A stretch of DNA of 64,000 nucleotides from a virus. Each line of letters opens with the position of its first letter. The first letter of the stretch is position 1. The notes beneath the pieces are model-generated. The model ran no database searches and was not told the DNA's origin. It saw nothing but the letters and a program-made list of their open reading frames with translations. Shown in pieces: positions 2,418 to 14,500 of this stretch. A program made the translations under genes and the position numbers. The stretch is from positions 1 to 64,000 of the IMG/VR virus record IMGVR_UViG_3300045988_125731, one strand, 5' to 3'.

Positions 2418-2660
2418 TTAAAAGTATAAACAATCACTTTTTTGGAAGTGTTCTATTTGTCTTAACATGTCTTTACACATGGCTGTAGCATACCCCATTA
2501 CAGCCGCCATGAAATCGTCGGCGGTGTCATATTCGTGTCTTTTGTGCTTTAATTCATTCAATGCAGCACAAAAGCAGTATTCAAACAAATTATGCTTATG
2601 CCCTTCTTCCATAATGTTTTCATCTTTTTTTTGCATTTCTTTTAATTCTTCTTTTTTCAT
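2418..2660 (-). CDS. hypothetical small early protein (80 aa, His/Cys-containing)
   Basis: ORF with RBS AAAGGTTTT, its own promoter and palindrome. Confidence 0.5.
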   Translation of the reverse strand: MKKEELKEMQKKDENIMEEGHKHNLFEYCFCAALNELKHKRHEYDTADDFMAAVMGYATAMCKDMLRQIEHFQKSDCLYF

Positions 2661-2680
2661 TTTAAAAACCTTTCTTTTAA

Positions 2681-2758
2681 AGTCCGTAGACTATTTTTAT
2701 TTCCGCCCTTGCTTAACAAAGACAATAACAATATATCATAAATAAAAAATTATTGCAA
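2681..2758 (-). promoter_or_regulatory. promoter (-35 TTGCAA 2753-2758, 17 bp, -10 TATATT 2730-2735) plus 12-bp near-palindrome AGTCCGTAGACT (2681-2692) in the 5'UTR
   Basis: Same grammar as the three other early promoters. The palindrome sits immediately upstream of the RBS. Confidence 0.5.
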
Positions 2759-3013
2759 GCATAATGCACTTTTATTTTTTAAATTATTTTTTTGCAACTC
2801 CTAAAAAATACAAGTAAAATCTATCTTTTTTAATAATAAAAAAATTTTTAAAATTTTTATAAAATCACTAAAAAATTAACTAAAAATCATAAACCAAAGT
2901 AGGAAATTTTTGCTTGACAATTTTAAAAACTAGGTAGGAAAAAACCATCAAGCAAATTTTAACCATATTCACTACTTAGCACTCGCCCCCATAGACTGCT
3001 AATATCTCTTAAG

Positions 3014-3035
3014 TGTCAAGCAAAACTACTTGACA
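3014..3035. repeat. inverted repeat TGTCAAG-N8-CTTGACA, copy 2
   Basis: Arms identical to 202-223. Lies at the left edge of the ori-like region. Confidence 0.5.
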
Positions 3036-3044
3036 GCAAATATG

Positions 3045-3232
3045 GTTAGCAATGACTAACTAAATGCAATAAAATTGCAACAAAAAAGAAACAAAAAAGA
3101 AACAAAAAAGAAATAAAAATGAAATAAAAAAAAGTCTTTTAAAAGTTTACTATTACTAAACTTTTGGCTTACATTTAGTAAACCGATTAGCACTTCAACT
3201 AGATTTTAAGAAGTTAGCAATGACTAACTAAA
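3045..3232. repeat. 20-bp direct repeat GTTAGCAATGACTAACTAAA (3045-3064 and 3213-3232) bracketing the A-tract array
   Basis: Exact 20-mer twice, 168 bp apart. Each copy contains the short stem GTTAG/CTAAC. Confidence 0.6.
3081..3134. repeat. phased A-tract tandem repeat, about 4.5 copies of an 11-bp unit CAAAAAAGAAA
   Basis: Units at 3081, 3092 and 3103, degenerate after that. The 11-bp period matches the helical repeat, which fits a bent or unwinding element. Confidence 0.6.
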
Positions 3233-3320
3233 AAAGTGTATATAATTTGATATTATAACTATTATTAGGGGGTATAATTTGAAATTAAAACCATTTTTTC
3301 CGCTCCAAAAACATAGTCAG

Positions 3321-3392
3321 CACTTCTCTCTTTCTCCCATTTTCCCTCTCTCCCTCCCCCTCACTTCCCCTCCTCTTTCCCTTATTTTTCCT
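3321..3392 (+). other. 70-nt polypyrimidine (CT-only) tract on the plus strand
   Basis: cacttctctctttctcccattttccctctctccctccccctcacttcccctcctctttccc. Almost no purines. A C-rich stretch in an AT-rich genome. Confidence 0.6.
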
Positions 3393-3648
3393 ATTCATTT
3401 AGGGTTTACTTTGGTTCTATTTTATCTCTATTTAGTATTTATTTTAGTAATATTTTAGTTTTCACTTTTACTCTTAGATAGTTCAAGAAATCGCTAGTAA
3501 ATTAAAGATTTCTCTTTCATTTTTATTGGGTAATCTTCGAGAAACAAAGAAACAAAGTAGAAAATAGATATAAGATATGTTATATATACTATTTTGGCTT
3601 ATGTAAAACTTTCCTAAATTTTTCTTTAGTTCCAGGTAAAGGACTAAC

Positions 3649-3787
3649 TTAAGAACTCTTTAAAAACTAGACAAGATACTAATCAAAGAACTTTATAAAA
3701 ACTTTCCAAAATCTAACTTAAGAACTTTCCAAAAGAAGATTAGAGAACTCTTCAAAGAACTTTATAAAGACTAGGTTAAGAACTTTG
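3649..3787. repeat. iteron-like array: six copies of (TT)AAGAACTYT, spaced at multiples of about 11.5 bp
   Basis: Copies begin at 3651, 3686, 3720, 3744, 3756 and 3779 (spacings 35, 34, 24, 12, 23). An 18-bp subrepeat AAAGAACTTTATAAARAC occurs twice. Confidence 0.55.
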
Positions 3788-4061
3788 TAAGAAACAAAGC
3801 AAAAGATAAAAGTTAAGATTTTTAGAAATTTATTTTTGAACTTTTTCTTTTACAGAAAAGATTTAGAAAAGTTCCTTAAACATCTTATAAAAACAAACTT
3901 ATCTAGTAAATTCCAAGATATTTACAAGAGTGATTAATTTATAGAAGAACATCAAGATATAATTTTCTTTTTGTATTCTTTTTTCTTTTAAAAGTAATAT
4001 ATAAATAGAATATAATAATAAAGAAAAGAACAAATACTGATTGGAAAGATAAAGTTCTTCC

Positions 4062-4150
4062 CCTAGTAGCCGAATGGCTACGTTCAGGGGGAAGAAGAGA
4101 GCCTCTCTGGCTCTGGAAGAGAGCCCTAGCGGCTTGAGCGGGTATACAAC
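4062..4150. other. GC-rich cluster of mutually exclusive hairpins; possible origin hairpins or a small structured RNA
   Basis: Hairpin GTAGCC-gaat-GGCTAC (4066-4081). Direct repeat GAAGAGAGCC at 4094-4103 and 4116-4125 with GGCTCT (4109-4114) complementary to both. The local GC rise is obvious against the surroundings. Confidence 0.45.
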
Positions 4151-4566
4151 CAAAAAAGAAAGTATACAATTAGCAAAGAGAAAAGGGACAGCTAACCATT
4201 TCTTTTGTATAAGCTAAAAAATTCTACACGTGACTAAGTTTAGCCGATACAAAGAAAAAGTAGGCTTCCACTTTACCTCTAAAATATAAATATATAGGTA
4301 AGAAATTAAGTAAGATTTAGACAAGAAGAGAAGGAAATAAAGGGCTTATGTAAGGGGCTTATGCTAGTTATTTTGGCTCTAATTTATAACATAATTATAT
4401 ATATAACATTTTGTTGTTTTTTAGAGCCATTTTTTATCAGCTAAGACTCTTTTTTAGCGGTGAGTTAGCAGGAGCGGTTGACAAAAATCTTGCACGCTTT
4501 TTAAATAATTATAAAAATAAAAGAGCATTTATAGAACAATATTTATTTGTTTATACTATAATTCTT

Positions 4567-4595
4567 TTGTAAAAACAAATATGATACAATATATT
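4567..4595 (+). promoter_or_regulatory. candidate rightward promoter TTGTAA-17-TATATT for the helicase operon
   Basis: -35 at 4567-4572, -10 at 4590-4595, 56 nt upstream of the ATG at 4652 (RBS AAGGAG at 4639-4644). Confidence 0.45.
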
Positions 4596-4651
4596 ATTAT
4601 TTGTCTAATCTTAATAATTACAATAAAAATAGATAGAAAGGAGTTGATAAG

Positions 4652-6235
4652 ATGAATAATAATATGAACAAGATTCAAAGCAATCTCTATATTAGTGATG
4701 TTATTAGTATTGAAGATATAGAGAGTTGGAAACCAGAACAGTTAGTATTAATCAATGCATCAACTGGTTGTGGTAAAACTTATTTTATAATGCATTCATT
4801 TGGTAAATGGTGCAAAGAACACGGGAAGAAGATTTTGATATTAACTAATAGAAATATCTTAAAATCACAAATGGTAAATGATGTTCCTGAAGATTTAGTT
4901 GATGTTGTTAAAATTTTAAACTACCAATTTGTTAGTGCTCAGGTTATGCAAACAAAGGGTAATGAATCTTTATCGGTGTTGAAGAATTATGATTATATTG
5001 TTTGTGATGAGTGCCATTACTTCTTTACAGATAGCACATTCAATAACGAAACAGACATTGCAATTGATGAAGTTTTAAAAGCTAAGCACGCTGTTAGAAT
5101 TTTCTTATCAGCTACATCTGTTGTTATTGGACAATATTTTGACCAATTAGAAGAAGAAAAGAAAATAGCACCTATTAAGAAATATTCAGTGTTAAAACCT
5201 TTACAATATGAAAATTTATATAGATACAAGAACAATGAATCTATATTAACATATTTAAGAATGATACCAGCTAATGAAAAGGTTATAATGTTTTGTAAGA
5301 GTGCGGAGGAAGCTTATGAGAATGCTAAGGCGTTTGAAGGGCGTAGTGCTTTCATTTGTAGTAAATATAACACTAATGATAAATTTAAAAAGAAGTCAAA
5401 TGATGTAATTCAAAAGGAAGTTGAAACAACATCTAAGTTTAGTTGTCAGTTTTTATTTGTAACTACCGCTTTAGATAATGGTGTAAATATTATTGACCGT
5501 GATGTTAAACATATTATTTGTGATGTAACTGACCTTGATACAATTCAACAATGTATTGGACGTAAGAGATTTATTGATGAAAATGACAAGGTAAATGTTT
5601 ATATTAAACAAATGTATAAAAAGGGTGCTAGATGCCATTTACAAAAAATAGCACGTGCAAATGTTATTGTAGATGATTTTGAAACGATGAATATAGAAGA
5701 CTTCGTTATGAAGTATGGGCGTAATATAAAGAATGGTGCTATCTACACACAAATAGATGAAAGCGGGCATTTACATTACAAGGTTAATCAAATACTAAAA
5801 TTTAAACGTTATTGGGATAAAATATACTATAAGGCGATGATACTTTATAATTGTTCTTTCCCTAATGTGATTGCGTTATCAAGATTAATGCATATTGATG
5901 AAACTGCTTGGAAGAGTTTAGAAGATGATATGGATATTAAAAGCTTAGATAGTTATATTAGAAAGCTTGTTGGAAAGAAATTATTTAGTGAAGGCAAAAA
6001 GAATTTTATTGATTACTTACAACAAACTACTATTTACTTTGCTGATAAGCGTAAAACATTAGGAATGAAAACTATTAATGGATTTTTTGAAGACCAAAAC
6101 TATCCTTACTATGTGTTATCATTTAAAGAAACACAAAGAAACGAAAACCGTAATAAGAACTATTGGGTAATTTTAGCTAAAGATGAGAGCGAAATGCCCA
6201 AGAAAAGAAAGAAACATAAAAAGAATGAGAGTTGA
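4652..6235 (+). CDS. superfamily-2 DEAD/DEAH-type (DECH-box) helicase
   Basis: Walker A NASTGCGKT, motif II CDECHYF, motif III SAT (LSATSV). Shows the two-RecA-domain layout with a C-terminal extension. Confidence 0.8.
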   Translation: MNNNMNKIQSNLYISDVISIEDIESWKPEQLVLINASTGCGKTYFIMHSFGKWCKEHGKKILILTNRNILKSQMVNDVPEDLVDVVKILNYQFVSAQVMQTKGNESLSVLKNYDYIVCDECHYFFTDSTFNNETDIAIDEVLKAKHAVRIFLSATSVVIGQYFDQLEEEKKIAPIKKYSVLKPLQYENLYRYKNNESILTYLRMIPANEKVIMFCKSAEEAYENAKAFEGRSAFICSKYNTNDKFKKKSNDVIQKEVETTSKFSCQFLFVTTALDNGVNIIDRDVKHIICDVTDLDTIQQCIGRKRFIDENDKVNVYIKQMYKKGARCHLQKIARANVIVDDFETMNIEDFVMKYGRNIKNGAIYTQIDESGHLHYKVNQILKFKRYWDKIYYKAMILYNCSFPNVIALSRLMHIDETAWKSLEDDMDIKSLDSYIRKLVGKKLFSEGKKNFIDYLQQTTIYFADKRKTLGMKTINGFFEDQNYPYYVLSFKETQRNENRNKNYWVILAKDESEMPKKRKKHKKNES

Positions 6236-6243
6236 TAAATAAA

Positions 6244-6429
6244 ATGGAAAGCAGAAGGAAAGAAGAATACAATCGTCACGACCCATTTGAAGATTTTGAG
6301 TGGTTTATCGAAACAGACTTTGATGAAGATGATTGGTATGAAGAAGATAGAAATCTTAATGATGATGAGATTTTAGAGTTAGATGAAACTCAGGGTCTAT
6401 ATTATGAAGACCAAGAAGGCGAGGATTGA
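6244..6429 (+). CDS. very acidic small protein (about 61 aa; Asp/Glu-rich with aromatic residues)
   Basis: MESRRKEEYNRHDPFEDFEWFIETDFDEDDWYEEDRNLNDDEILELDETQGLYYEDQEGED. Translationally coupled to the helicase stop. Confidence 0.5.
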   Translation: MESRRKEEYNRHDPFEDFEWFIETDFDEDDWYEEDRNLNDDEILELDETQGLYYEDQEGED

Positions 6430-8078
6430 TATGTTTGTTAAAGTTACAACAGTTCAACATTTTATCTCTTACTTACGAGAGATTAGCTAAGTGTGATTTC
6501 CATTTAGATATTACACTAGATGAAGCGGTGTATAATGATGAAATTATACAACTTGCTGATAATGAAGTGTTAAGAGCAATTAGAAGAATTACTAAACACC
6601 CTTACGACGAACATAAGTTTAAAGATTTATGGAAGTCTAGAGAGATTGTAATTAAACAAAAGAGTGGTAAAGAAAATAAGAGATTAGTTAAAGAACTTAC
6701 TCGCTCAATTGAAAAGATGTTGTATATTCCAGAATATGTGTGTGTTTATACTGAAAAGAAAGCCAAGTATGGAAAGATAGGGAGAAGCGGCTTTTGGATA
6801 AACGGAGTTAAATATAGAAGATTGTTATGTAGTGCGGGACAAGCAAGAACGAATCGAACTATGTTTGTTAGTGAAAAGATTTATAAGGAGCTCCATAACA
6901 TTTTAAAGAATGGGTGCCACGATGTTAAGATTGAACTTGCTAAGTGGAATGCCTATTATAGTTTAACATCATCTGCAACTTTTAGAGTTTCTGAACCAAG
7001 GGTTTGTGTTGTAAAAGATTGTGAAGTTGATAGACTAACTGAAGTTGAGTGGGTTACTGAATATCCTTCTAACGAACAAGAAGATGACATAGACACTAGA
7101 GAGGTAAATTTAAAGTTCAACTTATTTGATGGAATGGGGTTAATTAGTCCTGACAAAGCGATAGAGTGGGCTGGGGAATTAGAATTAGACCACACCCCTA
7201 GTGCATTTATTATAAGAAGTGCATTTGTTAAGGGATTAGTTGCTACGTTTGATTTTCATAAGTTTGCTAGAAAGTTAGAAGAACAAACTGGAGAAACCCC
7301 AATGCTAACTGATATTTATGGAAATCGATATAACCCTTATGAAATTGACATAGTATTATCAGAAAGTCAATTCAAACTTTGGAGAGGTTATAAATCTTGG
7401 GAAGAATACTGTGAGTGTTTAAAGAAAAGTAAAATACATTGGGGAGTAAGTAAGTTTACTCCTAAGATTGAAAAGGATTATATTAGAACTAACTACCAAT
7501 TCTTACAAGTTCTTAATTTAAGCGATGAAGATATTGCTAATTTATGCCAACCTACTATTGATTGGTTAAATGGAATTAAGGGTGGAGATGTAGACCAAAT
7601 GCAATTATATTTGTTAGGTAAGGCTGTAAAAGAGCAAAACCCTGAAAAGTTATGGCAAGGAATACAAGACCATTTTGTAAGAGCGTTGCTTTTAGATAAA
7701 AGATTAATTGCTGACCCCTATATTCAAAGTAGAATAGTTAATTCTCTAAATAAGAGAGTTGAAGAAAGTTACTTTGGAAAAATTTTAATTGCAGGAAATT
7801 ATCAAATAATGGTAAGCGACCCATATGCTTTTTGTGAACATATGTTTGGACTAGAAGTTAAGGGGCTACTTAATAGAAACGAACATTTTTCACATTATTG
7901 GAATCAAAGGGGTGTAAAGGAAGTAGCAGCAATGCGTGCTCCTTTGACTTGGAGAAGTGAAGTTAATTTACTTAATTTACAAAACAATGAAGAAACTAAA
8001 GAGTGGTACAAATATCAAACCGATACAATAGTTTATAATGTATTTGGAGTTGATTGTATGTTGCACGCTGGCTCGGAT
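6426..8078 (+). CDS. exon 1 of a large early protein (about 935 aa after splicing) of unknown function
   Basis: 551 codons open from a TTG start. The frame terminates at a TAA at 8079-8081, right after the proposed 5' splice site. The reading frame resumes at 8417. Confidence 0.55.
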
Positions 8079-8416
8079 TAACAAGACCAAAATAGTCCGC
8101 GTTTGTAGAAATACAGATGGAAAATATCTTTTTGAATTGCTGGGAAATCTTAAAGCTTCTACACCTATATGGAGCGTGAGCAGAAACAAGGTAGAAGATG
8201 GTAAGAAGAGTTTAAATGAAGGGGTCTATGACCTACTCTTCGCCTTAACAATAGATAATCAGCAGGGAAGTCCTAAATGGAAACCTTCAACGACTATCTC
8301 GAAAGAGAGTAGCTAACGCCAAGTGGAAAGACACCTAAACTATTTACAAATAGAATGGTGAAGATATAGTCTAAGCCGACATTATGAGAATGTGTTAAAG
8401 TATTACGAAAGTAACG
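8079..8416 (+). ncRNA. group I self-splicing intron (about 338 nt, no homing-endonuclease ORF)
   Basis: The 5' exon end cggaU(8074-8078) pairs with the internal guide Gtccg (8095-8099), giving a U.G wobble at the splice site. There are an AATTGCTGGGAAA P3/P4-like element (8138-8150), a P7 pairing GACTAT...ATAGTC with the conserved S element AAGATATAGTC (8360-8371), and GNRA tetraloop stems ctcGAAAgag and ttacGAAAgtaa. The terminal G (omega-G) is at 8416. Splicing joins two long open frames without a stop, and local GC is higher. Confidence 0.65.
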
Positions 8417-9571
8417 GTAGAACTGTTTGACGGCGATGTAGTATGCACAACCTCTAACCCTTATATCATCAATGGAAGATATGGGGGTAATCCAGTTTCT
8501 TATGCTGTAAAGAAAGCAGAAAAAGTAGAACTAGATGAAAAACAACTTTATAAAATGGACAAACTAGCCTATAATACTAAAATAGGATTTATCACAAATA
8601 TTTCAACATCTCTTTACGAAATTCAATCTCAATATAAAATTGGTTCTTTAGAGTTTGAAGAAATTAATAAGCGTTTAAAACTTTGTTGTAAACAGCAATC
8701 GGCAACTATTGATAATGCTAAAGGTGTTAAAACAAAAGAATTTCCTAAGTGGTGGTATAAATATAACAACCCAGAAAGATGTACTGAAAATATTAACACT
8801 GTTAATTTTAACAATAGTATCCTAGCAGATAAAAGACCCTACTTTATGAAGTATTTATACCCTAGTTATAAATTAGAATATCGTAAGTTTAGAAAGGACT
8901 TTGACAATTATGGTCTTATTGTATTTGGTAAAACTTACGAAGAAATAAAAGCCGAATACGAAAATTGCCCAACTGCTGAGTATAAAGAGTATTTGGAGTA
9001 TTATAAACAAAAGAATCCGTTGTTAGAAACCAATGGAACTATGAATCGTATTTGTTACTATATGGAAAATCAATTAAAAGATTTTACAAAACTTAATATT
9101 GATAAAACAATCTCTAGTCAAAATATATTCACAATTTTGTTTAATCCTGAATATGAAATTGAAGAAGGTAGTGCTAAGTTTAATCAAATGTTAGACTTGC
9201 TTCGACAATATAATAATTTTAAAGTTAATAAAGCACTTGCTTCTAGCGAGTATAACACTTACGAACAATTTTACAAAAGTTTAAGAAAGCAAGCATTGGA
9301 ACAAATATCTTCTAATATAGAAGAACTTGCAAATTACGCTGTGTATATTTGTTATAGTTACTATCCTAATAAACCGAAAGATTTTTTGTGGGACGTCTTT
9401 GGAAAAGGAATAGTAAAATATTTAATTAGTAAAAATCCACAAGTAGAACTCTTTAAATTAAAGATTGACCCAGAAGAGTTCAATTCTGATGATGTTAAAT
9501 ATTTGTATCAGCATTTTGAAAGAACCACTTTAAATCTTACACAAAAGGAGGAGTTAGTAAATGAGTTATAG
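8417..9571 (+). CDS. exon 2 of the intron-containing large early protein
   Basis: The frame is open from 8399 (stop at 8396-8398) through the annotated Met at 8555 to 9571. The junction reads ...HAGSD|VELFDGDVV... Confidence 0.55.
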   Translation, partial: VELFDGDVVCTTSNPYIINGRYGGNPVSYAVKKAEKVELDEKQLYKMDKLAYNTKIGFITNISTSLYEIQSQYKIGSLEFEEINKRLKLCCKQQSATIDNAKGVKTKEFPKWWYKYNNPERCTENINTVNFNNSILADKRPYFMKYLYPSYKLEYRKFRKDFDNYGLIVFGKTYEEIKAEYENCPTAEYKEYLEYYKQKNPLLETNGTMNRICYYMENQLKDFTKLNIDKTISSQNIFTILFNPEYEIEEGSAKFNQMLDLLRQYNNFKVNKALASSEYNTYEQFYKSLRKQALEQISSNIEELANYAVYICYSYYPNKPKDFLWDVFGKGIVKYLISKNPQVELFKLKIDPEEFNSDDVKYLYQHFERTTLNLTQKEELVNEL

Positions 9572-10753: not shown

Positions 10754-11122
10754 ATGAAGGAAAACAAAACAGACAGAGTGTCCTTGAAAGACATTTATCG
10801 TGAAGTTGCTCAGACAACAAATGTAAGCATTATAGACAGCCGAATTGTGTGTGAGGCTTTCTTAAACATCTTAATGGAAAAGCTTTTAAATTTTGAAACA
10901 GTAACATTAAGCGGTTACTTTTCATTAGAACCAACTGTTCACAAATCTAGACCAGTAGTTCAATGGGGAACTAATAAGGTGGTTACTTCTTGTGAGGCTC
11001 CACAAATTAAGTTCATACCTTGTAAACAACTTAAGCAAAGTTTAAGAGATAGTTGGAAAACTAAAAAAGCTCAATTAACAGCAATAGCAATAGATGACGA
11101 TAATGAAGAGGAGGACGAATAA
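10754..11122 (+). CDS. HU/IHF-family DNA-binding protein (divergent)
   Basis: Alignable by eye to Bacillus HU: VTLSGYFSLE versus IQLIGFGNFE, and IKFIPCKQLKQSL versus PAFKPGKALKDAV. Size is 122 aa. Confidence 0.6.
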   Translation: MKENKTDRVSLKDIYREVAQTTNVSIIDSRIVCEAFLNILMEKLLNFETVTLSGYFSLEPTVHKSRPVVQWGTNKVVTSCEAPQIKFIPCKQLKQSLRDSWKTKKAQLTAIAIDDDNEEEDE

Positions 11123-12910: not shown

Positions 12911-12992
12911 GGAACGTTCGTGTAGCTAAGACCTATTCGGGCGTTCTTTTTTACCTACATAGAGTAATGTCTGTGTAGGTAATTTTTATTTT
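12911..12992 (+). terminator. two tandem terminator-like hairpins inside a GC-rich structured segment upstream of the packaging genes
   Basis: GGAACGTTCG...CGGGCGTTC followed by TTTTTT (12911-12952). ACCTACA...TGTAGGT followed by aatttttatttt (12953-12992). Confidence 0.4.
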
Positions 12993-13005
12993 GGAGAGAT
13001 GTAAA

Positions 13006-13467
13006 ATGAAAAAATTTAAAAATATATTATTAAAGATTTTATTATTCTTAGTTAACATTTCTTGGTGCTTGCCACAAAACATAGTTGGGTTGGTAGTTTG
13101 GCTTTATTTAAAAGTTACTGGTCGAATTAAATTTGTAGAATTTGTTGATTACCCTGATGGAAGTACTATTAAGTCTTATACCTGGACAATACAAAGTGGT
13201 AGTATGTCAGTTGGTGAATTTAGGTTTATGTATGACTATAGAGCAGAATCCACTTATAAAACAGTTTTAGCACACGAATATGGTCATACCTTGCAATCTT
13301 ATTTGCTTGGCTGGTTATATTTGCCAGTAATTGCTATACCTAGTATTTTATGGTGTAGTTGGATAAGTAATTGGAAATGTAATATTGGAAAAGAATATGA
13401 TACTTTTTATACTGAAAAATGGGCAACTGCTCTAGGAGAATCATATTTATATCCAAAAGAGAAATAA
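13006..13467 (+). CDS. small membrane protein with an HExxH zinc-metallopeptidase-like motif
   Basis: Hydrophobic N-terminal segments. HEYGH within LAHEYGHTLQ. ATG at 13006 follows a GGAGAG RBS. Confidence 0.5.
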   Translation: MKKFKNILLKILLFLVNISWCLPQNIVGLVVWLYLKVTGRIKFVEFVDYPDGSTIKSYTWTIQSGSMSVGEFRFMYDYRAESTYKTVLAHEYGHTLQSYLLGWLYLPVIAIPSILWCSWISNWKCNIGKEYDTFYTEKWATALGESYLYPKEK

Positions 13468-13510: not shown

Positions 13511-14500
13511 ATGGGACGTTCAATTATTAGAAAACCTGCTGCTCCAGTTATTAAAACTCCTAAAGAACCTAAAGAGACTTATAGATGTATTAAGTGTCAA
13601 AAGGATTTAGCGGCGAGTAAGTTTTATACATTTACGCCAGATGGTAGAATAACACCTTATTGTAAAGAATGTTTAATTCGAATGTGTTTAAATACAAAAG
13701 GAGAGTTTGATTATTCTTTATTAAAAGAAGCAATGCAATTAGTTAATAAGCCAGTTCTTTATTCTAAGTTTATAGAACTTAAAAGTGATAAAGATTTAAC
13801 CGAAGTAGAAAAAGCTCAAAGATATTTCCATTTTCTTACTTTAAAAATTAATCAAAACTTAACTTGGCTAGACAGTAAAGATGAAACTTATATTGATTCT
13901 ATTCAAGTTGCTAAGATAAAAGCAGGCGTAGAAGAAGCACCTGCGGCTCTTTGTGTTGATGATGAATTAACTTACAAATGGCACACTAGCGATAAAGAAA
14001 AAATTAATTGGCTAGAGAGAGAGTTTAAGGAATGGGCAACTTCTTATGTAGTAGAAGGTAAAGCACAAAGAGAATTGGTACAACAAATATGTTTGTTAAA
14101 ATGGGATATTGCTTCTTATCAACGTCGTGGGTTAGAAGTACCAGATGCTTTGTATAAGAATTTATCAAAACTACTTGGGGACGCTGGTCTTAAACCTATT
14201 CAAGAAACTGAAAACGGAGCCGACATAGGTCAAAGTTTTGGTATGATGATAAAGATGATAGAAGAAAATGAACCTATTTTACCTTTAACTACTCCTGATT
14301 GGTTTGATGAACTGCAATTAACTATTACAGGACAAATTGCTAAGATGATGGGTCTTCATAATAGCGTTACGCAAAAATATGAGGAATATTTGTCTGGCTA
14401 CTCTGTGAAAGAAATTGAAGCGTTATTCAATGATACCGAAGATGAAAGTGATATAATGCTTGAAGAAGAACTTGAAGATAAACTTGCTGGAGAACAATAA
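13511..14500 (+). CDS. putative terminase small subunit (by position), with an N-terminal zinc-ribbon
   Basis: Lies immediately upstream of the terminase large subunit. Contains CIKC...CKEC and an acidic C-terminal tail. Confidence 0.4.
   Translation: MGRSIIRKPAAPVIKTPKEPKETYRCIKCQKDLAASKFYTFTPDGRITPYCKECLIRMCLNTKGEFDYSLLKEAMQLVNKPVLYSKFIELKSDKDLTEVEKAQRYFHFLTLKINQNLTWLDSKDETYIDSIQVAKIKAGVEEAPAALCVDDELTYKWHTSDKEKINWLEREFKEWATSYVVEGKAQRELVQQICLLKWDIASYQRRGLEVPDALYKNLSKLLGDAGLKPIQETENGADIGQSFGMMIKMIEENEPILPLTTPDWFDELQLTITGQIAKMMGLHNSVTQKYEEYLSGYSVKEIEALFNDTEDESDIMLEEELEDKLAGEQ

Follow-up and report, generated by a model that had tools for sequence, protein, structure and literature searches.

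Repeated recognition elements beside a terminase cut are known from phage lambda, in which cosB comprises R1–R3 and an IHF site, and from phage SPP1, with pacL and pacR. In both systems they are aided by bent DNA or by a protein of the HU/IHF type; specificity differs between related phages and the cutting machinery is conserved. In phage T7, about a dozen CCTAAAG repeats (the SRL array) with a period of 13.1 bp are found at positions 174–340, after the 160-bp terminal repeat. Neither a replication origin nor a packaging signal has been defined for phages of the type of Bacillus phage SPbeta; according to one review, the replication of SPbeta had not been investigated and its pac site was without similarity to that of SPP1. 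Literature searches on the function of the T7 short repeats and on the SPbeta origin yielded nothing usable. Here, a tandem array of short repeats is described from IMG/VR virus record IMGVR_UViG_3300045988_125731, of which positions 1 to 64,000 were analysed (64 kb, hereafter the window).

The window was a low-GC (~31%) tailed-phage genome and, judging from gene content and order, is a distant SPbeta-like siphophage. The array was located within a 1.9-kb gene-free region (~2750–4650) between diverging gene sets, and was the top periodic signal and the top k-mer cluster of the whole window. The favoured reading, to which a probability of about 0.4 is assigned, is that the array is a cis-acting protein-binding platform on duplex DNA in the genome-end region, cosB/pac-like or T7 SRL-like, for recognising or processing the concatemer junction.

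Compared with T7, the locus would share a short direct terminal repeat (160 bp in T7, predicted here) followed by head-to-tail repeats with a 7-nt core and variable spacers; the array is likewise positioned upstream of the first early promoters and genes. In addition, the repeat core (T)ACCTAAAG of three related loci (L001, L006 and L026) contains the T7 heptamer CCTAAAG. The differences from T7 are the period (13.1 bp in T7, 11.6 bp here), the distance (14 bp after the repeat in T7, about 320 bp past the predicted boundary and behind a polypyrimidine tract here) and the virus itself, a podovirus with a single-subunit RNA polymerase versus an unrelated SPbeta-like siphovirus with a YonO RNA polymerase. 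A second array across the terminal repeat, as in T7, was not found in the window, where only an 11-bp A-tract repeat (3079–3131) lies left of the conserved core that marks the predicted boundary. The sites of cosB and SPP1 pac are two to four in number, longer, partly inverted and about 50–170 bp from the cut, whereas here about 13 tandem units of the same orientation lie 320–470 bp from the predicted cut.

Structure and conservation of the array

The array, its strong copies and the surrounding conserved segment are as follows.

3639..3793, plus strand: tandem array of about 13 head-to-tail units of about 11.6 bp, each with the core AARAACT and 4–5 variable nucleotides
3651..3786, plus strand: six strong copies, AAGAACTCT at 3651, AAGAACTTT at 3686, 3720, 3755 and 3778, and GAGAACTCT at 3743
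3500..3800, no strand: island of conservation in fast-diverging non-coding DNA, from comparison with loci L003 and L025

Exact copies of AAGAACTYT on the plus strand started at 3651, 3686, 3720, 3755 and 3778 (n = 5, span 136 bp). The sixth copy, GAGAACTCT at 3743, deviates from this consensus in its first base and keeps the register; a TT prefix was present on three of the six. A first-pass annotation, made from the sequence alone, had listed six AAGAACTYT copies. Five of them are exact, and its first three starts were right, whereas 3744, 3756 and 3779 were each one base too high. The start-to-start spacings are 35, 34, 23, 12 and 23 bp, with 23 in place of an earlier 24 and the other four unchanged.

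That the repeats form a non-random array was borne out by comparison with random expectation, an analysis that the annotation had named as one that could refute it. Dinucleotide shuffles of the 1.9-kb non-coding region contained AAGAACTYT 0.15 times on average, against five real copies, and the largest cluster in 5000 shuffles was two; in shuffles of the local 231 bp the mean was 0.11. Over the whole window, nine occurrences were counted against 4.0 expected, and the four outside the array are at chance level and inside genes. A test on any repeated 8-mer was left unused, as homopolymer runs in the shuffles confounded its result.

Fourier analysis of 3639–3793 gave a peak at 11.6 bp with a power of 8.9 (shuffle maximum 1.7), reached by 0 of 300 shuffles. 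Stacking at steps of 11.58 bp placed the unit starts at 3639, 3651, 3662, 3674, 3685, 3697, 3708, 3720, 3732, 3743, 3755, 3766 and 3778, and the strong AAGAACT copies recurred every one, two or three units. Tandem Repeats Finder (TRF) reported a row at 3684–3772 with a period of 23. The array is built of 11.6-bp units without spacers and no cas genes were found among the annotated open reading frames (ORFs), while CRISPR repeats are 24–48 bp long, separated by unique spacers of similar length and usually accompanied by cas genes; the earlier remark that the array is not CRISPR-like holds.

The six strong copies were phased with R = 0.98 at 11.5 bp (P ~0.002 against random placement, periods of 10–12 bp scanned), a value obtained with 3744 for the fourth copy, the corrected 3743 fitting better. 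The lattice of one, two or three steps of about 11.5 bp proposed before was thus confirmed, but 11.5–11.6 bp is not the helical repeat of B-DNA, and the proposal that all copies face the same side of the helix was not. At 10.5 bp R was only 0.32, and on relaxed B-DNA of this repeat the six copies would lie at 0, 0.33, 0.57, 0.86, 0.90 and 0.10 of a turn, with a rotation of about 38 degrees from unit to unit. With a period of 11.6 bp in place of 10.5 bp, either the bound proteins would trace a shallow helix along the duplex, or the DNA would be undertwisted in the complex.

Conservation was assessed against L003 and L025, metagenomic relatives with helicases 97–98% identical to that of the window. 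Segment 3500–3800 showed 1–7 differences per 100 bp, against 12–60 per 100 bp in 3000–3500, 3900–4000 and 4300–4600; the helicase coding sequence, with 0–7 differences per 100 bp, diverged at the same rate as 3500–3800. All AAGAACT heptamers were intact in the window, L003 and L025, and the sole substitution within a strong copy (3750 C>T, in the deviant copy) was toward the consensus. The array is under purifying selection. Megablast of 2500–5000 against GenBank phages gave no match.

Folding of the plus-strand RNA was worse than in 196 of 200 shuffles (z = +1.8), which shows a depletion of self-complementarity, and that of the minus strand was average. Rfam had no match in the non-coding region, even at E ≤ 1, and a promoter and terminator scan had none inside 3600–3800. 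A structured RNA or a cluster of promoters is unlikely. Conservation, poor RNA folding and the lack of Rfam or promoter matches together point to a putative selected protein-binding site on duplex DNA.

The predicted genome end and arrays of related phages

Upstream of the array, the following elements were recognised.

3268..3326, plus strand: conserved core, GGGGGTAT, a fixed spacing, then CATAG(TCA)GCACTTC; predicted right boundary of the terminal repeat or block near 3316
3319..3400, plus strand: polypyrimidine (CT-rich) tract directly after the core, of a kind conserved in all lineages
3079..3131, plus strand: 11-bp A-tract unit repeated in tandem, AACAAAAAAGA x4.8, on the far side of the core and within the predicted terminal block
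3045-3064 and 3213-3232, plus strand: two copies, 168 bp apart, of an exact 20-nt direct repeat, GTTAGCAATGACTAACTAAA, both within the predicted terminal block

In the window and in L001, L004, L006, L025 and L026, GGGGSTAT occurred exactly 51 nt before AGCACTT and was followed by the polypyrimidine tract, and cores of this type aligned with SPbeta and BUCT082 around CCCATAGCACTTCC. The 1.9-kb non-coding region is syntenic with the yonR–yonP region of SPbeta, between whose genes the packaging start ("genome opening point") of that phage has been mapped. A high-coverage SPbeta fragment of about 250 bp, given as supplementary sequence by its authors, reads toward yonO from CTTCGATTCCCTCGG... to ...GGGGGTATATTTAC...TACCCATAGC. 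It starts at CTTCGATTCC and ends between CCCATAGC and ACTTCC, so that the end of the SPbeta block falls inside the motif kept in the window at 3312–3326. The GenBank record of BUCT082 begins exactly at CTTCGATTCC, the other end of the SPbeta fragment. Psychrobacillus phage Perkons, retrieved through helicase and YonO proteins of the window type, has direct terminal repeats of 264 bp defined by PhageTerm, and its terminal repeat ends about 500 bp upstream of its helicase gene. As these sizes (~250 and 264 bp) and positions match, sequence comparison suggests a family with short terminal repeats whose inner boundary is the conserved motif. The terminal block of the window is predicted at roughly 3050–3317, and the array would lie about 320–470 bp inside the predicted left end.

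The SPbeta pac region also shares with the window the core GGGGGTAT...CATAGCACTTCC, the pyrimidine-rich tract and lineage-specific heptamers (TTACGAT) within 300 bp. It differs in that its cluster is non-periodic and in both orientations and the array sequence of the window is unrelated to it, and in that here an inserted helicase gene separates the region from the yonP/yonO homologues.

Beyond the closest relatives, arrays of different sequence were found at the equivalent position. L001, L006 and L026 carried TACCTAAAG-type units downstream of the core with periods of 11.3–11.4 bp; in L004 the units were TTGCTTAAG/GTCTAGC and the period 11.2 bp. In L105, three 10-bp TTTTCGTTAC units directly followed the core; there the helicase gene was inverted and the non-coding region kept its polarity toward YonO. 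All five TTACGAT/ATCGTAA copies of the 14-kb locus of SPbeta and BUCT082 were within 300 bp after the core and non-periodic. The family-wide plan is a shared boundary motif and a lineage-specific repeat cluster, with strict phasing confined to one clade. The A-tract repeat, likely an intrinsically bent segment, had counterparts at equivalent places in L105 (an A-rich array) and in L001 (AAAAGTTT-type repeats); GTTAGCAATGACTAACTAAA occurred nowhere else in the window. The comparison gives a family-wide map in the order A-tract, boundary motif, polypyrimidine tract and lineage-specific repeats, and a precise prediction of the location of the chromosome ends.

The arrays of L001, L006 and L026 differed in how many units they have and in their 3' part, showing repeat turnover. 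Together with the low-complexity, AT-rich surroundings, this variation is what would be expected if the array were a functionless tandem duplication arisen by replication slippage in a spacer. Such an origin is hardly credible, however, as the array is conserved at coding level and its flanks diverge 5–10 fold faster, the strong heptamers are kept exactly, and arrays of different sequence with periods of 11.2–11.6 bp occupy the equivalent position in three other lineages.

From these observations we infer where the phage ends lie, what kind of protein binds and that the array serves in packaging. The mature chromosome would end in a short direct terminal repeat of about 250–270 bp (roughly 3050–3317), with CATAGC/ACTTC as its inner boundary, and be followed by the polypyrimidine tract and the array. 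A phage-specific DNA-binding protein would polymerise head-to-tail along the ~13 units of 11.6 bp, with the strong AAGAACT copies as its anchors; the terminase recognition subunit and an accessory end-binding factor are the most plausible candidates. The complex would designate this concatemer junction as the place where the boundary motif is cut and packaging begins, the part taken in lambda by the R sites of cosB beside cosN. The family-wide boundary motif is taken to reflect the conserved cutting machinery, and the lineage-specific array sequence a specificity determinant co-evolving with the binding protein. If the array is such an end-recognition element, it would explain packaging specificity between related phages, help to orient metagenomic genomes of the group and offer a handle for engineering transducing particles.

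Several points weigh against a role at the genome end. The predicted end of the window rests on short-motif homology and synteny, and the Perkons boundary, between AATAGCG and TAAGACTTC, is only weakly like the core and was not aligned with it by MAFFT. SPbeta, BUCT082 and Perkons are without a periodic array, so that members of the wider family can package their DNA without phased repeats. The distance of 320–470 bp from the predicted cut is beyond that between cosB and cosN in lambda or between the SRL and the terminal repeat in T7. For the T7 short repeats themselves, no function is established to our knowledge. A small terminase subunit was not identified in the window, the ORFs at 12991–13467 and 13511–14500, upstream of the large terminase gene, having no informative family matches. 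Finally, the authors of the SPbeta work read their data as pac/headful packaging and not as a terminal repeat.

A more far-reaching proposal, which must be called speculative and rather improbable, is that SPbeta-like phages, SPbeta included, have fixed ends with a direct terminal repeat of ~250–265 bp bounded by CATAGC/ACTTC, instead of pac/headful packaging. One clade would have added the 11.2–11.6-bp array as an end-specificity module, its protein coating undertwisted DNA or winding helically, and a T7-like architecture would have evolved independently in large temperate siphophages of Firmicutes.

Other interpretations of the core and other comparison phages were discarded. A coding role (a Shine-Dalgarno-like sequence with a TTG start) was rejected, the short ORF having 9, 13, 13 and 59 codons in four lineages. 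AGCACTTY was also rejected as a general YonO promoter, with no repeats near late genes. An IMG/VR scan for the core GGGGSTATRWTTTGAAATT gave 12 loci, 11 of them contexts of a ribosome-binding site and start codon and one a known relative. Among 80 metagenomic loci found through the helicase, the core was present in the two closest (97% and 47% identity) and the more distant loci were without it. Enterocloster phages PMBT24 and CB457P1 were set aside as comparisons for their different, extremely AT-rich region; moreover, the record start of CB457P1 is not trustworthy as a terminus, its record ending in a poly-T artefact.

A sliding Fourier scan of the helicase-found loci was uninformative at moderate power, with period-12 peaks of up to 5.4 in coding DNA. 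A strong 15.6-bp signal in L084, L097 and L100 was rejected as a related array and corresponds to hairpin repeats of an unrelated one. In these more distant helicase relatives (L097, 3950–4210; also L084 and L100) it consists of about eight units of ~31 bp, each a short hairpin followed by AAAATTTAGGT, 570–640 bp upstream of the helicase, with a Fourier power of 7–7.6 at period 15.6.

Core and tract together were located at 3268–3400 in the window, 4465–4620 in L001, 4703–4840 in L004, 1692–1850 in L006 and 6590–6480 on the minus strand in L007 (SPbeta); core and a polypyrimidine tract of ~80 nt are common to SPbeta of B. subtilis and to low-GC metagenomic phages. Base pairing is possible between the two flanks of the spacer, where changes compensate each other (GGGGCT/AGCCCC in L004 and GGGTA/TACCC in SPbeta), and a -10-like AAAAAAGTATATATAAT was found 25–55 nt upstream. 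Besides marking the terminal boundary, the core element may be transcribed as a CU-rich RNA; in SPbeta, the small RNA (sRNA) ncr1052 has been reported between yonR and yonP.

Gene neighbourhood and alternative roles

The genes of the plus strand, from 4652 to ~49 kb, encoded an SF2 helicase, a YonO-type two-barrel RNA polymerase (Pfam RdRP), an HU homologue (10754–11122), a YonJ-like protein, the large terminase, the portal and tail proteins, with a small ORF between the helicase and the RNA polymerase. On the minus strand, at 49–64 kb, a resolvase, a helicase-nuclease (PHROG matches to exonuclease V and Dda-like helicase), Pol III alpha, an exonuclease, a primase and a DnaB-like helicase were encoded. 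Content and order match SPbeta, with yonP, yonO, yonN, yonK and yonJ, then late genes, and the yor replication genes elsewhere. The first gene downstream of the array was the SF2 helicase, and the leftward neighbour genes differed in every lineage. The minimum of the cumulative GC skew fell in the 1.9-kb region, at the switch of coding strand.

The first-pass annotation had taken the repeats for iterons bound cooperatively by a replication initiator. As origin iterons, the AAGAACT copies would bind a phage initiator cooperatively, which would distort AT-rich DNA and load the DnaB-like helicase, or the SF2 helicase would itself be the origin-binding helicase. This reading is plausible, although on the unlikely side. 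A phage with its own replisome needs an origin, none is known for SPbeta, and one defined here would be the first for the SPbeta-type group. The repeats are direct and of the same orientation, the strong copies are mostly 23 or 34–35 bp apart, an iteron-like spacing, and their sequence is lineage-specific at a conserved position, as for co-evolution with a binding protein. The surroundings are AT-rich (25% GC), with the 11-bp A-tract repeat nearby, and the array lies between diverging transcription units at the skew minimum, with a helicase as the first downstream gene. The locus resembles the iterons of lambda ori (O sites), R6K and P1 in that its direct repeats are regularly spaced at about 2 x 11 bp, its flanks are rich in AT, its A-tracts are phased and its sequence is specific to the lineage.

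Against an origin, searches of Pfam and PHROGs detected no initiator-like gene (Rep, O-like or DnaA-like) beside the array, where the neighbours were the SF2 helicase, the YonO RNA polymerase and small ORFs, an initiator beyond recognition being possible. The DnaA box TTATNCACA occurred 0 times on both strands of the 64 kb (4.4 expected from shuffles), and no discrete unwinding element stood out in a region that is AT-rich throughout. The replisome genes are at 51–63 kb, on the other arm and ~45–60 kb from the array. The skew minimum is not independent evidence of an origin, because it coincides with the switch in gene orientation and is explained by it. Units of 11.6 bp with 7-nt cores are shorter than classical iterons of 17–22 bp, about half the usual length, and lie in a predicted terminal region. 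BUCT082 has the helicase and no periodic array, and the helicase gene of L105 has the opposite orientation with respect to the region. Furthermore, the gene-free region 1240–2055, with 20% GC and repeats, is an equally plausible origin. An initiator as the binding protein is thus not supported, and the earlier annotation was partly supported, its label of origin iterons not being the best-supported function of the array. Either way, the array is a good target for footprinting, its strong sites being few and exact.

Region 1240–2055, the second gene-free region, was very AT-rich and contained a 32-bp unit x2.8 (1933–2020), a 10-bp unit x3 (1570–1599) and a period-10.2 signal near 1551. It may be regarded as an alternative candidate replication origin or as a regulatory region.

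The diverging gene sets also bear on a regulatory role. As a transcriptional or chromosome-structuring element, the array would bind a repressor or an anti-repressor, silence the early region with the help of HU or signal a pause during genome entry, and would control diverging early promoters at the edges of the region. Promoter-like sequences and a 27-nt inverted repeat are present at both edges, an HU-like gene lies downstream, the yonP promoter region of SPbeta is bound by the master repressor MrpR, and sRNA ncr1052 is transcribed nearby. This role is nevertheless distinctly improbable. The array is 700–850 bp from either edge promoter and has no promoter-like site within it. Operators of the SPBRE type are single sites spread over many promoters, whereas AAGAACTYT is confined to one array, and the TTACGAT cluster of SPbeta is absent from the nearby yonT and yonX promoter regions, which are bound by MrpR.

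The 27-nt inverted repeat (89% complementary, 2763–2789 and 4503–4529) brackets the 1.9-kb region beside the promoter-like sequences of its edges, and related TTGCAAGTAATATG motifs were found at both edges in L001, L004 and L006. Both are candidate operators or promoters that the diverging early units would have in common.

The length and strict head-to-tail order of the units recall partition centromeres, as the repeats of R1 parC are 11 bp and those of tubC 12 bp long. If the phage were a plasmid-type prophage, the contiguous 11–12-bp repeats would be coated by an adaptor resembling ParR or TubR, which would couple the DNA to a filament-forming NTPase; a period above the helical repeat agrees with a protein filament that winds about the duplex. 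Clostridium phage c-st and the LIBA-type phages of C. difficile, among the relatives by Pol III alpha or YonO similarity, are known or suspected plasmid prophages. A centromere is very unlikely here, since neither the neighbourhood of the array nor the annotated parts of the window yielded a gene for ParA, ParM, TubZ or an adaptor, and none adjoined the arrays of L001, L004 and L006. R1 parC and tubC differ in this respect, known centromeres abutting the adaptor gene; here the leftward neighbours differ per lineage, and the array is tied to the core of the terminal region, not to any gene.

Other elements of the window

Two further elements of the non-coding region were recorded.

3579..3592, minus strand: ATAGTATATATAAC motif, 45 bp upstream of the array
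4057..4100, plus strand: GC-rich hairpin TTCTTCCCC...GGGGGAAGAA, preceded by an inverted AAGAACTTT copy at 4051-4059 on the minus strand

In L001, L006 and L026, a 17-mer of the ATAGTATATATAAC motif was present in two copies on the opposite strand, a short way upstream of the array; it is not a dispersed promoter motif. The AAGAACTTT copy at 4051–4059 is the only inverted one and directly precedes the hairpin. Hairpins in AT-rich DNA were present in all lineages with different stems (TTCTTCCCC/GGGGGAAGAA, ACCTTCCC/GGGAAGGT and AACTTCCCAC/GTGGGAAGTT), at 4057–4140 in the window, 5196–5275 in L001, 5469–5550 in L004 and 2433–2512 in L006, and had no Rfam match. In three lineages they were followed by GTAGCGA..GCGTTAATC. 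Covariation of the stems was judged by eye only and has no formal count, automatic alignment having mis-registered them.

In SPbeta (L007, 1153–2835, minus strand), a non-coding spacer of 1.7 kb separates yonN and yonK and, by eye, has a markedly higher GC content than the DNA around it; the window has no spacer of this type, its HU and yonK-like ORFs overlapping. The YonO-like RNA polymerase gene (6426–9571, plus strand) was split into ORFs 6426–8081 and 8555–9571 by a group I intron at 8061–8395 (Rfam RF00028, E = 6e-14, 57.9 bits with a gathering cutoff of 50), which a whole-window run at the gathering threshold had missed. The gene was uninterrupted in L003, a 98% relative (932 aa), and similarly split in L001 and L006.

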